DNA from: an uncultured Methanosarcinales archaeon
GTDB taxonomy: Archaea > Nanobdellota > Nanobdellia > Woesearchaeales > CAZYIM01
NCBI GenBank assembly: GCA_964647565.1
Contig: CAZYIM010000042.1
Span: 1 to 18,628, forward strand
Direction: 5' to 3'
Length of the DNA: 18,628 bases
Within the stretch, counting starts at the first letter, position 1. Each line of letters opens with the position of its first letter. Below, piece after piece: positions 2,314 through 18,628 of this stretch. The position numbers were made by a program, and so were the translations under genes. The notes beneath the pieces are model-generated. The model ran no database searches. It saw only the letters and a list, made by a program, of their open reading frames with translations, and had not been told where the DNA came from.

Positions 2314-2949
2314 ATGGAAGCTTTTTCTAAACTAAGAAAAGAGATGGTAGATTATCAAATAAGAAATAGAGGCATCACTAATAAAGGTGTTCTAGAAGCT
2401 TTAGAAGCAGTACCTAGAGAGGAATTTGTACTGGATCAGTTCTCTACTGAGGCTTATGATGACGGTCCATTGCCTATTGATTGTGATCAGACTATCAGTC
2501 AACCATATATAGTAGCAATTATGACAGAACTTCTTGAACCAAAAAAAACAGACAGGGTCTTGGAAATAGGTACAGGCTCAGGTTACCAGGCAGCAGTGCT
2601 ATCTCTATTGGTAAATGAGGTTTACACTCTTGAAAGACATAAATATCTTGTAAAGAAAAGTTCTGGACTGCTTAACAAATTGGGTTATAAAAATATTCAT
2701 GTGATTGAAAGGGATGGCACATGTGGCTACAAGAAGGGAGCGCCATATGACAAAATTGTGGTAACTGCCGCCACAAAAAAAGTTCCAAAACCATTAATTG
2801 AACAACTTAAAGAAGGGGGGATTTTAGTTGCTCCCGTAGGAGGTTCGTGGAGCCAGATTCTTCAGAAAATTACAAAAAAGAAAGGGAAAATCATTGTTGA
2901 AAATTTACTCGGCTGCAGGTTCGTACCTCTTATTGGCGAGCATAGCTAG
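2314..2949 (+). CDS. pcm: Protein-L-isoaspartate(D-aspartate) O-methyltransferase
   Basis: VPREEFV, AYDDGPLPI, QTISQPYIVA, SAM-binding VLEIGTGSGYQAA, APYDKIVVTAA and FVPL motifs. Confidence 0.95.
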   Translation: MEAFSKLRKEMVDYQIRNRGITNKGVLEALEAVPREEFVLDQFSTEAYDDGPLPIDCDQTISQPYIVAIMTELLEPKKTDRVLEIGTGSGYQAAVLSLLVNEVYTLERHKYLVKKSSGLLNKLGYKNIHVIERDGTCGYKKGAPYDKIVVTAATKKVPKPLIEQLKEGGILVAPVGGSWSQILQKITKKKGKIIVENLLGCRFVPLIGEHS

Positions 2950-2973
2950 TGCGAGAAAGTAAATCTCGACTAG
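2946..2973 (+). terminator. Hairpin overlapping the pcm stop codon (possible terminator or processing stem)
   Basis: CTAGT-g-CGAGA-aagtaaa-TCTCG-ACTAG: 10-bp stem with one bulge; no strong T-tract follows. Confidence 0.35.
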
Positions 2974-15083: not shown

Positions 15084-15142
15084 CAAAATCGTCCAAATTT
15101 GTGGTTTTTTACCCTTGATTTCGACCATACAAATATATATTT

Positions 15143-15181
15143 CTACTCCCGAGTAGTAAAAGAAACGAAACATTTATAAAT
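15143..15181 (+). promoter_or_regulatory. Palindrome CTACTC-cc-GAGTAG upstream of BRE/TATA (cgaaaca-TTTATAAA-t)
   Basis: Perfect 6-bp inverted repeat at 15143-15156; promoter box at 15166-15181; RBS GAGGTGA at 15220-15226. Confidence 0.55.
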
Positions 15182-15230
15182 AAATAATTTCTATACCACT
15201 TTAGAATAGTTAAATAAAAGAGGTGAGTTG

Positions 15231-15311
15231 ATGAAACTCGAAAAAGAAGTCGTCAAGGTCAAAACATCAGAAAAGATGATTGATGTGGACTACCTTTTAA
15301 GTGGCTTCTAA
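15231..15311 (+). CDS. Small peptide, 26 aa (MKLEKEVVKVKTSEKMIDVDYLLSGF), not in the ORF track
   Basis: Strong RBS GAGGTGA 4 nt before the ATG and a dedicated BRE/TATA; TAA at 15309-15311. Confidence 0.55.
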   Translation: MKLEKEVVKVKTSEKMIDVDYLLSGF

Positions 15312-15344
15312 CTCAAAAAAAACTTAACTGAAGAGACAAAAAAA

Positions 15345-15532: not shown

Positions 15533-16111
15533 ATGAAAAAAATCGGTTCCGGAGCTGAGGCCGTAGTCTATAAGGATAAGAATCAGGTTATTAAAATCAG
15601 GCCAAAGAAAGGTTATAGAATCAGTGAGATAGATAGTGAATTAAGAAAATTTCGAACTAGAAGGGAAGCTAAAGTTATAGAAAAACTACCCGTCCCGGGT
15701 CCAAAACTTATCGATTGCGACAGAAAGGAAAAGTTGGTAATGAGCTATATCAAGGGTAATAAAGTCCGAGATATACTTGATAACCAGCCCAAACTCGCTA
15801 GAGATATAGGTCATAAGCTCAGTCTTATGCACGATGCAGACATAATCCATGGTGACTTGACCACATCCAACATGATATTTGATAAGGAGTTAAAGTTTAT
15901 AGACTTTGGACTCAGTTTTTTCTCATCCAGGATTGAGGATAAAGCAGTTGACATCCACCTTTTCAAGCAGGCCCTAGAAAGCAAGCATTTTAGAATTGAA
16001 AAAACAGCATATAAAGAATTTCTAAAGGGATATAAACGAGCCAGAGATTACGAATTGATCATCAGTAGGCTAGAAGAAGTAGAAGGTAGAGGGAGGTACA
16101 AAGGTAAATGA
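15533..16111 (+). CDS. bud32: KEOPS complex kinase/ATPase Bud32 (Kae1-associated)
   Basis: GSGAEA, KIRPKKGYR, RTRREAK, IIHGDLTTSNM, IDFGLS, EDKAVDIHL and terminal RGRYK. Start reassigned to ATG 15533, 29 nt after TTTATAAA at 15504. Confidence 0.95.
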   Translation: MKKIGSGAEAVVYKDKNQVIKIRPKKGYRISEIDSELRKFRTRREAKVIEKLPVPGPKLIDCDRKEKLVMSYIKGNKVRDILDNQPKLARDIGHKLSLMHDADIIHGDLTTSNMIFDKELKFIDFGLSFFSSRIEDKAVDIHLFKQALESKHFRIEKTAYKEFLKGYKRARDYELIISRLEEVEGRGRYKGK

Positions 16112-17877
16112 GAAGATTTATCCTCTTTATGTTGTTTTTCTTGATTATCATATCTGTACCTTGTGCGGCAACTAAAAAAAGCATAACTCTATTGACAATT
16201 TCCAAATCGGACGACGATTTCATCGGAGGAACTGCAGAAATGATTCTAGAGATAAAAGCAGGTTCGGGAAGAATATTCATTGATTCATTCCCCATCTCCA
16301 AGATGGATACCCAAATTTCTACCAGATTTGCAAATGATATGGCGTGCAACTTCCTCGAAAGAGATTGTTCTGCCTATGATTTTTTCTATACTATAAGGGC
16401 TAACAGTAATATTGTTGGCGGACCCAGCGCAGGAGCCGCCACAACAGTACTTACTATAGCGTCACTGGATAATTTAGATATTCAGGAGAATATAGCAATC
16501 ACTGGCACAATTAACTCAGGCGGGTTGATTGGGCCTGTCGGAGGGATAAAAGAAAAAATAGAAGCTGCCAAAGATGTAGGCATGGTTAAAGTGCTTATCC
16601 CTTCGCTAACCTTCCTGAACGATACCAATCTCTCTGATGTTGAGGATATTAATATAATAAAGGTGGGTAGTGTAGAGGATGCTGTTTTGGAGGTTACTGG
16701 TAAATTATATCCTAGTCACGAAGATCAGGGCGTATCCAAAGCATATTCAGTTAGAATGAATAAAGTCGCATCTGCTATCTGTGAAAGAACAGCTGGCCTC
16801 AAAACGAGACTATTGAATATAAATAGTTCTGCCTATAATGCCTCTGATGACAAACTAAACCTTTCAAGTCTTGCATTTGAAGAAGCCAAATACTATAGCG
16901 CAGCAAGTTATTGCTTCTCTACTAATGTCAGATTCAAGGAAAAAATTGTAGAGCAACTTGGCGAAGAAGAATGGCTCGATACAAAAGATAAAGCAGACAC
17001 CTCAATAAACGCCATCAATAAGTGGCTTGATAAGAAGAAACTGGAAACTATTCCAGATCTGGAAACCTATATGGTGGTCAAGGAACGACTTAGTGAAGCC
17101 AGAGACACTCTGAATAATACGAATTCATCTAATAATTCAACTTACGACATTGCTTATGCTTACGAAAGAGTACAGAGTGCTGTAGCTTGGTCTAAATTCT
17201 TTGGCCTGGAAGGACGACAATTTGTACTGGATGAACCTGCATTAAAGGAAGGTTGCCTAAAAAAAATCTCTGATGTCGAAGAAAGAATAGATTATTTCAA
17301 TCTCTATCTTCCTCTAGAGTTAAACAGTATCAGGGCAGTCTTAGATAAAGCTTATGCCGAATTAAAAAAGGAGAATTATGCTGTCTGTTTATTCAAAGCC
17401 AGCAAAGCAAAGGCTGAAATCGATGTTATTATATCGTCTATGAGTGTTAAAGAAGAATTGGTGCCAGAACTTATCGACCAAAAACTGAAGCTGGCAAAGA
17501 GAGTAATTCTTAAAGAACAGGCAAAGGATATTTTCCCCATCTTAGGATACAGCTATTTTGAATATGCACATTCCCTTAAGAATGAAAACCCATACTCATC
17601 TCTGTTGTTTGCAGAATATGCGCTTGAGCTCAGCAACCTCGATGTATATTTTCCTAAGAAAAGTGTCCACATCCCCATTGTAGAGCCCGAATATTATTAT
17701 ATCTTCATCCTAGGTATTCTGATTGGATTTATTGCAGGTATTTTAGTATATAGACATGCAACTTCAAAAAAAGAGATGAAAAAAGCTATAAAAAAGAATA
17801 CCAAGATCAGAATGAAAAGAGAAAAAACCCAAGAAGATTCCAAGAAAAGTCGGAATCTCCTCGGGAAAAAGAGGTGA
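16108..17877 (+). CDS. Secreted, membrane-anchored Lon-like (S16) serine protease (archaeal COG1750-type)
   Basis: N-terminal signal/TM; Ser-Lys dyad context GGPSAGAA and TGTINSGGLIGPVGGIKEK; long helical region; C-terminal TM and basic tail; no AAA+ domain. ATGA overlap with bud32. Confidence 0.88.
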   Translation: MRRFILFMLFFLIIISVPCAATKKSITLLTISKSDDDFIGGTAEMILEIKAGSGRIFIDSFPISKMDTQISTRFANDMACNFLERDCSAYDFFYTIRANSNIVGGPSAGAATTVLTIASLDNLDIQENIAITGTINSGGLIGPVGGIKEKIEAAKDVGMVKVLIPSLTFLNDTNLSDVEDINIIKVGSVEDAVLEVTGKLYPSHEDQGVSKAYSVRMNKVASAICERTAGLKTRLLNINSSAYNASDDKLNLSSLAFEEAKYYSAASYCFSTNVRFKEKIVEQLGEEEWLDTKDKADTSINAINKWLDKKKLETIPDLETYMVVKERLSEARDTLNNTNSSNNSTYDIAYAYERVQSAVAWSKFFGLEGRQFVLDEPALKEGCLKKISDVEERIDYFNLYLPLELNSIRAVLDKAYAELKKENYAVCLFKASKAKAEIDVIISSMSVKEELVPELIDQKLKLAKRVILKEQAKDIFPILGYSYFEYAHSLKNENPYSSLLFAEYALELSNLDVYFPKKSVHIPIVEPEYYYIFILGILIGFIAGILVYRHATSKKEMKKAIKKNTKIRMKREKTQEDSKKSRNLLGKKR

Positions 17878-17920
17878 GCTTAATGATAAATGTTAGAAAC
17901 CTCTTTGAACAACCCCCTTT
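17822..17920 (-). ncRNA. Candidate structured small RNA antisense to the protease 3' end
   Basis: Minus-strand BRE/TATA at 17957-17941; 8-bp stem AAAGAGGU/ACCUCUUU; 16-bp stem CCCGAGGAGAUUCCGA/UUGGAAUCUUCUUGGG with three G-U pairs, followed by U6. Family unknown; ends approximate. Confidence 0.5.
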
Positions 17921-17940
17921 AAGTCCTTTTTATGGGATTA

Positions 17941-17957
17941 ATTATTTAAACTTTTCG
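17941..17957 (-). promoter_or_regulatory. BRE/TATA promoter pointing leftwards with no protein gene to serve
   Basis: Minus strand reads cgaaaag-TTTAAATA-at, the same architecture as cgaaaca-TTTATAAA at 15166 and caaaacc-TTTATAAA at 9770. Confidence 0.55.
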
Positions 17958-18018
17958 ATTTTATCCATTTCATAATGGTAACAAATCGTAATCTATTGGT
18001 GACGATTTTGAGCACACA

Positions 18019-18546
18019 ATGACATGTAAAAAATGTACTAGAAAAAGCCAAGTGAGTTTAAGTTATGAAAAAGAAGGCTATTGTGAAGAATGCTTCCTAA
18101 AAACTGTTGAAAAAAGGATCAGAAAAGAACACAGGATTCAAAAAACTTTCAAACCAAAGGAAAAGATCTATCTATTAAACGACGGTTCAAAGGAATTTAG
18201 AGTCTCAAAATATTATTTGGAAAAAATATGGCCCCTGCTCAAGATAACTGAAGTAAAGAAAAAAATTAAACACGCCCAATATAAACTTGTAATTCCATCT
18301 AATCTGGATAGGGAGATAAACAAGAGATTCATGAGCCTGCTCACAAACAAGAAACTAGATAGTCAGCCAAAAAACCAGATATTATTCTTAAACAACCTTT
18401 TGGAAGAAGAAATAATCCACATCTGCCAACTAATGAGATTTAAGATCGGAAAAAAGGAAAAGAAAATTCCGTTCATAGAACAGCTTGAAACGGAACATCC
18501 AGGCACTAAATTCTCAATGATAAAGAGTTTTAATCTCATCCCTTAA
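18019..18546 (+). CDS. Short, degenerate TtuA/Ncs6(Ctu1)-like protein with N-terminal zinc finger
   Basis: CKKC...YCEECFLKTVEKRIRK resembles the TtuA N-terminus and LETEHPGTKFSMIKSF its C-terminal region, but the PP-loop SGGKDS is absent (LNDGSKE at the matching position) and the protein is only 175 aa. Confidence 0.6.
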   Translation: MTCKKCTRKSQVSLSYEKEGYCEECFLKTVEKRIRKEHRIQKTFKPKEKIYLLNDGSKEFRVSKYYLEKIWPLLKITEVKKKIKHAQYKLVIPSNLDREINKRFMSLLTNKKLDSQPKNQILFLNNLLEEEIIHICQLMRFKIGKKEKKIPFIEQLETEHPGTKFSMIKSFNLIP

Positions 18547-18609
18547 TCCGAAAACCTCCCGAATTATCTTCAATAAGTTTTATTAAACTAATTCTTGTAT
18601 GCTAAAAAC

Positions 18610-18628
18610 ATGAAATGTGTGTGGGTGT
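18610..18628 (+). CDS. Probable start of the next gene (MKCVWV...), cut by the window edge
   Basis: ATG about 30 nt after an AT-rich TATA-like box (ttttattaaa at ~18578-18587); only 6 codons visible. Confidence 0.3.

Follow-up and report, generated by a model that had tools for sequence, protein, structure and literature searches.

A widespread candidate small RNA family of Woesearchaeota-type archaea with a conserved strand resembling the 16S rRNA tail

This study concerns a small RNA gene in an uncultured archaeon of the order Woesearchaeales (GenBank assembly GCA_964647565.1, here G000; 2.68 Mb in 86 contigs, 87% complete). The DNA analysed, referred to below as the window, is the whole of contig CAZYIM010000042.1 (C42; 18,628 nt), and the stretch in question lies on its minus strand, where a plus-strand protease gene ends and before the gene of a small protein, p175. 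An initial annotation, drawn from the letters alone, had flagged it as an unannotated, stand-alone non-coding RNA of ~100 nt with its own promoter. Conservation, covariation, synteny and asymmetric use of G-U pairs in relatives all back that proposal, and minus-strand positions 17822 to ~17921 are, judged by sequence, almost certainly a real promoter-driven small RNA gene. It belongs to an uncatalogued RNA family carried almost universally by archaea of the Woesearchaeota type and of sister orders (class Nanoarchaeia/Nanobdellia, DPANN), and the RNA probably controls where translation starts. The features of the locus are as follows (basis of each in brackets; BRE, B recognition element; MFE, minimum free energy; ORF, open reading frame).

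17943..17958, minus strand: BRE/TATA promoter, tCGAAAAG-TTTAAATA (letters read directly)
17917..17923, minus strand: predicted transcription start, ~20–26 nt past the TATA box (archaeal spacing rule)
17879..17921, minus strand: lineage-variable 5′ extension, which can pair with the conserved motif (MFE folds)
17917–17913, minus strand: run of five G (G5) within the 5′ extension, beginning ~22 nt past the BRE/TATA (letters read directly)
17906–17899, minus strand: AAAGAGGU within the 5′ extension, an arm of stem 1 (letters read directly)
17878–17866, minus strand: CUCACCUCUUUUU, between the extension and stem 2 (letters read directly)
17863..17878, minus strand: invariant single-stranded, anti-Shine-Dalgarno-like motif CUCACCUCUUUUUCCC (invariant columns in alignments A1 and A2)
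17828..17865, minus strand: stem 2, a 16-bp hairpin with a CCC/GGG base and loop CUUUUC (folding, covariation)
17822..17827, minus strand: run of six U (U6), the likely 3′ end or terminator and a possible Lsm-binding tail (letters read directly)
17817..17882, minus strand: whole unit matched by covariance model R1 at 71.8 bits (covariance model search)
16108..17877, plus strand: convergent S16 (Lon_C) membrane protease gene (ORF list, protein comparisons)
18019..18546, plus strand: divergent neighbour p175, a miniaturised NcsA/TtuA-like protein (ORF list, protein comparisons)

The promoter, the G5 run, the stem 1 arm, stem 2 and the U6 run all lie on the minus strand where the initial annotation had placed them, and its description of a 16-bp stem with three G-U pairs on that strand was borne out both by reading and by folding. 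Its statement that no protein gene lies downstream also stands, as no minus-strand ORF of at least 60 aa was present there outside the protease gene.

Folding and strand of the RNA

A 110-nt minus-strand RNA folded at −34 kcal/mol (z = −3.5), a value reached by none of 200 shuffled sequences, with stem 1 and stem 2 both present in the MFE structure; the plus strand of the same stretch gave −24 kcal/mol (z = −2.2). When cut to the predicted ends (17921–17822), the minus-strand RNA folded at −33.7 kcal/mol (z = −4.05), with 5′ AAAGGGGGU paired to ACCUCUUUU in place of stem 1 and with stem 2 unchanged. Since the two folds differ only in their 5′ pairing, the 5′ structure is ambiguous and stem 2 constant. 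Folded by itself, stem 2 formed 16 pairs (three of them G-U) at −23.9 kcal/mol, against 12 pairs at −13.5 kcal/mol for its antisense.

This asymmetry extends to the family described below. Among 60 units compared (one further unit was left out), the hairpin of the strand carrying the U run was more stable than that of the opposite strand in 50, equally stable in one and less stable in nine; G-U pairs accounted for 99/865 on the U-run strand versus 22/778 on the other. The argument for selection on the minus-strand RNA, originally made from three G-U positions of the window copy, thus holds family-wide, and by these comparisons the RNA strand is the minus (U-run) strand.

A plus-strand reading was considered, in which the hairpin and GGGAAAAAGAGGTGA would serve as 5′ leader and Shine-Dalgarno (SD) site of a 30-aa ORF (17884–17976). 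It was rejected because relatives show no conservation of a start codon or an ORF past the motif antisense and because tandem units leave no room for one. The ORF itself (30 codons, MINVRNLFEQ…), which begins 6 nt past the GAGGTGA of the motif antisense, is absent as a conserved ORF from relatives and probably occurs by chance.

Conservation, covariation and distribution of the family

Three elements make up the family core: the invariant single-stranded (A/C)UCACCUCUUUUUCCC, a hairpin that covaries and differs in sequence between units, and GGGUUUU. The conserved single strand spans 13–16 nt, and in the window positions 17878–17863 fit its form (A/C)UCACCUCUUUU(U)CCC directly 5′ of the hairpin. 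Family hairpins have 12–17 bp with a CCC/GGG base and covarying pairs and are followed by GGGUUU(U), as is every unit in alignments A1 and A2; the window unit, with its 16 bp and U6, conforms to this description. A DNA search in 40 relatives, all of the same order and each from another family, returned weaker matches with this same layout. Eleven units from eight genomes could be aligned with 19 invariant columns, including UCACCUCUUUU..C.C, and their consensus fold contained 12 pairs, of which eight showed compensatory double changes.

A covariance model built here (R1) was then used with a match threshold of E = 1e-3 or better. The window unit scored E = 1e-17 to 5e-19 with this model, for which reason we regard the hairpin unit as more than a chance structure. 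In the order sample (Woesearchaeota-type), R1 matched 138 of 151 genomes and 106 of the 115 high-quality ones; with the unpublished genomes G111, G120 and G131 left out, the count was 135/148. Matching genomes carried one to six units, often two of them in tandem within 100 nt. The phylum sample gave matches in 136/151 genomes, including 28 of 34 from other orders of the same class. No matches were obtained in the searched genomes of families f46 (0/3), f114, f118 and f137 (0/2 each). The retention of the RNA in about nine tenths of the genomes of the order (more than 130 families), as well as in sister orders, makes it likely to be important to DPANN biology.

Covariation became more pronounced in a larger set, for which the initial annotation had pointed to the 3′ ends of orthologous proteases: in relatives the hairpins at these loci covary. 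Sixty-two distinct units from protease-anchored loci, in an alignment that was itself fitted to model R1, had 98.6% of cells paired and double changes in 10 of 12 pairs. Cells changed on both sides numbered 185 in these units, compared with at most 38 in slid controls and 47.6 in shuffles.

The unannotated status of the RNA was upheld by the Rfam comparison that the initial annotation had suggested, in which Rfam 15 gave no family match at gathering thresholds over the whole window; around 17700–18100, with E values up to 10 admitted, the best matches reached at most 16 bits (E of at least 2.6). Full-text literature searches on small or structured RNAs of DPANN, Woesearchaeota and Nanoarchaeota and on archaeal anti-SD small RNAs (sRNAs) likewise turned up no account of such an RNA. 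DPANN, Nanoarchaeota and Woesearchaeota are also absent from the main text of two 2026 preprints on intergenic elements, the supplements of which could list such a cluster.

Past the U run of many single units (L033, L034, L038, L039, L066, L069, L029) stands AUAAUCA(C/U), which resembles the start of a next unit. This flank hints that units once stood in an ancestral array, or that they have a conserved extension on their 3′ side.

Genomic context, promoters and 5′ extensions

Searches with the window proteins (tblastn) showed the protease orthologue convergent and the p175 orthologue divergent to the unit in most fetched loci. A set of 80 protease-anchored loci was drawn from named public metagenome-assembled genomes (MAGs) with a protease alignment as query (a single-sequence query gave none); in 51 of them a unit lay convergent within 400 nt of the end of the protease match, in 10 it was found elsewhere in the locus on either strand, and no unit was found in 19, three of these having short flanks. 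The arrangement of protease, RNA and p175 is thus an orthologous and syntenic locus, and as 7/80 anchored loci have the unit in another orientation or on another side, this synteny has been rearranged several times. The unit is on the same strand as the protease and just downstream of it in L117, L128 and L145, and on the same strand and upstream in L094, L126, L136 and L142.

The final ~56 nt of the protease coding sequence (CDS) in the window are shared with the RNA on the opposite strand, so that the last ~18 codons and the stop (…KTQEDSKKSRNLLGKKR-stop) correspond to the unit's antisense. The motif antisense GGG AAA AAG AGG TGA encodes G-K-K-R-stop, the exact end of both the window protein and its orthologue in L041. 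Orthologous proteases typically have a terminal transmembrane helix followed by a short Lys/Arg-rich tail, and most align only up to window residues ~540–547. Among 20 orthologues, two (L041, L027) read through the hairpin, five end in the edge of the unit and 13 stop earlier; further overlaps of protease and RNA were seen in L059, L056 and L058. The tail KTQEDSKKSRNLLGKKR is therefore a read-through into the RNA gene, tolerated since it is still basic, an explanation of …GKKR-stop tails that may be of use to gene callers. Of the two roles that the initial annotation had offered, the overprinting of a stable RNA on the protease tail agrees with these observations, since G-K-K-R-stop is the motif antisense and most orthologues stop before the RNA; a conserved cis-antisense regulator finds no support, the overlap being lineage-specific and hence a by-product rather than the conserved function of the RNA.

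The own genome holds only two copies of the unit in 2.68 Mb, and a dispersed genome-wide repeat, named beforehand as an outcome that would speak against an RNA gene, was thus not found. The second copy (contig C10, 50007–50071; positions 1497–1561 of L002) is 95% identical to the window copy over 55 nt, including the otherwise variable stem. It has no promoter and sits between two genes: a TrmB/TrmBL2-like regulator gene, whose stop codon it follows directly, and a convergent AstE/AspA-like gene. This arrangement recurs in G135 (L062; protein 59% identical) and G094 (L072; same C-terminal peptide), i.e. in three families in all, and the 3′ end of the TrmB-like regulator mRNA is thus a second conserved home of the unit.

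A BRE/TATA was present upstream and on the same strand in 51 of the 57 last-in-array units of relatives, and two of the six misses (L056, L067) show a TATA-like sequence by eye. The distance from the end of the TATA box to the CACC of the motif varied from 21 to ~180 nt. In eight units (L052, L070, L039, L053, L065 twice, L069 and L054) it was 21–26 nt; as archaeal transcription begins a fixed short distance past the TATA box, these are expected to start at the motif itself. The minimal RNA would accordingly be ~55–65 nt long, its free 5′ end being formed by the motif. The remaining 5′ extensions reach up to ~150 nt (~45 nt in the window) and differ in sequence, GGGG or GAGG being frequent in them. 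MFE prediction for 10 RNAs showed the extension paired to the motif in the window RNA, L018, L034 and L040 and partly so in L057; the motif stayed free in L042, L030 and L063, and the minimal L065 and L070 have no extension with which it could pair. Stem 1 and the G5 run, to which the initial annotation had given a structural part, are present in the window and neither is conserved across the family; because extensions vary and minimal RNAs have none, we treat both as optional and lineage-specific. Where such an extension exists, the modelled folds suggest that it may mask the motif.

The consensus BRE/TATA of the RNA-gene type occurs at 111 sites in the own genome, many of them 25–28 nt before leaderless ATGs. 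Semi-palindromic boxes of the type GTTAC(C/T)A(C/T)T…A(A/G)TGG were seen at 17965–17982 (minus strand) and, for example, at 15115–15135 and 15160–15185 (plus strand). They sit ~6–20 nt upstream of the BRE and again between the TATA box and the transcription start, both boxes of a given promoter co-vary between genomes, and some of the 111 consensus promoters have comparable boxes in front of them. They may constitute the operator of a widespread transcription factor; the idea that the box pair is an operator specific to the RNA gene was rejected, as palindromic boxes like these also stand before other promoters in this genome.

In many relatives the RNA gene is found in synteny with its divergent neighbour p175 (175 aa), a protein related to the tRNA thiolases NcsA and TtuA but miniaturised. 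Profile matches to 6scy (E = 5e-17) and PH0300 (E = 2e-15) covered chain residues 4–269 with ~90 residues deleted. The protein retains an N-terminal CxxC…CxxC finger and a Rossmann-like core (AlphaFold2 predicted local distance difference test score 88.6), has no stretches aligned to the Fe-S cysteines and has a degenerate PP-loop. It is probably catalytically inactive, and it could be an RNA-binding partner.

Possible function and rival explanations

The 3′ end of the organism's own 16S rRNA reads GGAUCACCUCCU, followed by UUUU. Set against the pre-16S sequence AUCACCUCCU-UUUUA, the RNA has AUCACCUC-UUUUUC, so that its strand AUCACCUC-UUUUU reads as a near-copy of the 16S tail minus one C. 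Both share AUCACCUC and a subsequent pyrimidine/U run; they differ in that the RNA has CCUCU where 16S has CCUCCU, that the RNA is predicted to be a separate transcript of ~60–100 nt with its own promoter, and that its hairpin lies 3′ of the motif, whereas helix 45 lies 5′ of the 16S tail. No such hairpin was seen in the 3′ flank of the own 16S gene.

The complement of the motif, AAAAAGAGGUGAU / AAAAGAGGTGA(A/T), is the commonest extended SD context in a crude set of gene starts, 9 of 148 of which have AGGTGA. Several genes have sites with at most three mismatches to this complement right before the start codon, and many generic AAAAAGAGGTGAT-type sites precede starts; no conserved specific target emerged. 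The initial annotation had listed GAGGTGA sites complementary to the RNA at 17871, 15220 and 3044. Those at 15220 (the SD site of a small ORF) and 3044 exist as such; at 17871, the sequence is supplied by the RNA's own complementary strand.

The reading we favour is that of a trans-acting RNA. The open pyrimidine strand, as a near-copy of the 16S tail, would act as a seed that base-pairs with the A-rich SD regions (AAAAAGAGGUGAU) of mRNAs, and by competing there with the 30S subunit the RNA would lower the initiation of SD-led mRNAs. The genome-encoded Lsm/SmAP protein could be held by the U stretch, hairpin and U tail, and in lineages with a 5′ extension its G-rich, SD-like stretch could mask the seed. 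Read directly, the units show the element order of Sm/Hfq-type RNAs (seed, U-rich site, terminator hairpin, U tail), and an Lsm gene is present in the own genome. We put the probability of this reading as a whole at roughly 0.5, the existence of the RNA gene being the near-certain part of it.

Several points weigh against competition at SD sites or limit its support. Looking for transcripts drew a blank that counts neither way: no RNA run covering 17000–18628 was found, and four runs of the same studies gave zero cover over 17600–18200. Lsm genes occur in 140/151 genomes, including all 13 that lack the RNA, and hence give no co-occurrence signal; the larger covariation alignment, as said, was fitted to R1. 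Since the sequence complementary to the motif is simply a generic, strong ribosome-binding site (RBS), target specificity is not accounted for, and no specific conserved target emerged. The motif is always CCUCU and never the CCUCC of 16S, which suits A-rich SD contexts and weakens a pure 16S-mimic view, and an invariance of 15 nt across the class, unusual for regulatory sRNAs, may point to a protein or the ribosome as partner. Many units end in just U3–U4 (archaeal termination usually needs at least five U), and the copies past the TrmB-like gene lack their own promoter.

One further reading, which we rate as rather unlikely, is that the RNA is a housekeeping-grade twin of the 16S tail, i.e. 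a global competitor or decoy, acting either on SD sites or as a stand-in for the pre-16S 3′ end. Occupied SD sites would then shift translation from SD-led to leaderless mRNAs or, alternatively, a maturation or initiation factor would meet the RNA in place of the pre-16S 3′ end, with p175, catalytically stripped, or Lsm as a conceivable protein partner. If true, this would add a new general layer of translation control in minimal-genome organisms. A decoy role, in which the RNA does not pair with mRNAs and instead titrates or delivers a protein acting on the (pre-)16S 3′ end (the D-site endonuclease Nob1 or another maturation or initiation factor), seems unlikely to us. It draws on the same resemblance to AUCACCUCCU-UUUUA, on a near-universal, class-wide invariance that fits a housekeeping partner better than an mRNA regulator, and on the conserved stem base CCC-NN-GNAR / YUNC-NN-GGG, whose invariant A-U suggests protein recognition; however, one C of the 16S tail is missing in all units, and no factor is tied to the RNA by synteny or co-occurrence.

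The unit might alternatively be a specialised terminator or 3′-end protection module, possibly insulating convergent genes, with the ‘gene’ amounting to a promoter that runs into it. Its place between convergent genes, the U run behind the hairpin in all units and the promoter-less copies directly past the TrmB-like stop codon in three families (G000, G135, G094) would all fit, but one to six units per genome is far below the numbers of a general terminator, 51/57 units come with a dedicated promoter that has nothing else to drive, an invariant 13-nt upstream strand would not be needed, and tandem units occur. Moreover, placement downstream of a gene holds only for the second copy, as the window copy has a promoter and no minus-strand gene upstream, and we consider this explanation quite unlikely. 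Regulation of the 3′ end of the S16 protease mRNA by convergent, overlapping transcription is very improbable: despite the ~56-nt overlap in the window, the convergent placement in 51/80 loci and the full overlap in L041, L027, L059 and L056, only 2/20 orthologues cross the hairpin, five touch the edge of the unit and 13 stop before the unit, which lies elsewhere in 10/80 loci; second copies follow another gene, and the conserved sequence is accounted for without the protease. A small mobile or dispersed repeat without RNA function, similar to miniature inverted-repeat transposable elements or repetitive extragenic palindromes, is hardly credible. The 95% identity of the two own-genome copies, variable stem included, does imply a recent duplication or gene conversion, but 2.68 Mb of sequence contain just these two, orthologous positions are kept across the order, stems covary with strand-asymmetric use of G-U, and no terminal repeats were seen.

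Comparable RNAs are known from other systems. Bacterial Hfq-dependent sRNAs (e.g. of the RybB type) combine a 5′-terminal seed with an Hfq module of U-rich stretch, terminator hairpin and U tail. The units described here are like them in their short 5′ seed, U-rich stretch, stable hairpin and 3′ U run, in presumed pairing with the RBS and in a host that encodes an Sm-fold protein; unlike them, they have an archaeal promoter and host, no sequence relationship to them and no Rfam match, the seed is a class-wide invariant near-copy of the 16S tail, units occur in tandem, and Lsm binding is predicted by analogy. Closer by host domain are sRNA41, sRNA154 and sRNA162 of Methanosarcina mazei, archaeal sRNAs that mask ribosome-binding sites, carry their anti-SD stretches in loops and are restricted to Methanosarcina. 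Compared by description, these too are intergenic, promoter-driven and equipped with C/U-rich anti-SD stretches, whereas here a free strand stands 5′ of a single hairpin and is conserved over a DPANN class. The Gram-positive sRNAs RsaE and RNAIII of Staphylococcus aureus direct C-rich UCCC seeds, placed in hairpin loops, against SD sites; they share a pyrimidine-rich seed complementary to SD sequences and differ in their bacterial hosts, loop-borne seeds and lack of identity over the length of the 16S tail. Near-universality, an invariant 16S-tail-like 5′ strand, tandem modules and a home at the 3′ end of a regulator gene thus appear to set the family apart from known anti-SD seed sRNAs.

To our knowledge, DPANN archaea, which have very small genomes, have almost no described regulatory RNAs. 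The family offers a defined and testable candidate for a global regulator of translation initiation, or of 30S maturation, in archaea that have not been cultured, and model R1 can be used to annotate the RNA gene in hundreds of MAGs.

Two minor observations concern sequences mentioned above. The window's best complements to the RNA motif include the RBS of a 26-codon ORF at ~15233–15313 (plus strand; MKLEKEVVKV…), which has a full promoter and a perfect AAAAGAGGTGAG SD site and is placed between an Rpr2 gene and a RIO/Bud32-like kinase gene; this ORF may encode an unannotated small protein. The 16S gene of the own genome (contig C15, 3022–4591) is followed, past a U/A-rich spacer, by what looks to be a tRNA-gene-like stretch interrupted by an insert (~2830–2960, minus strand).

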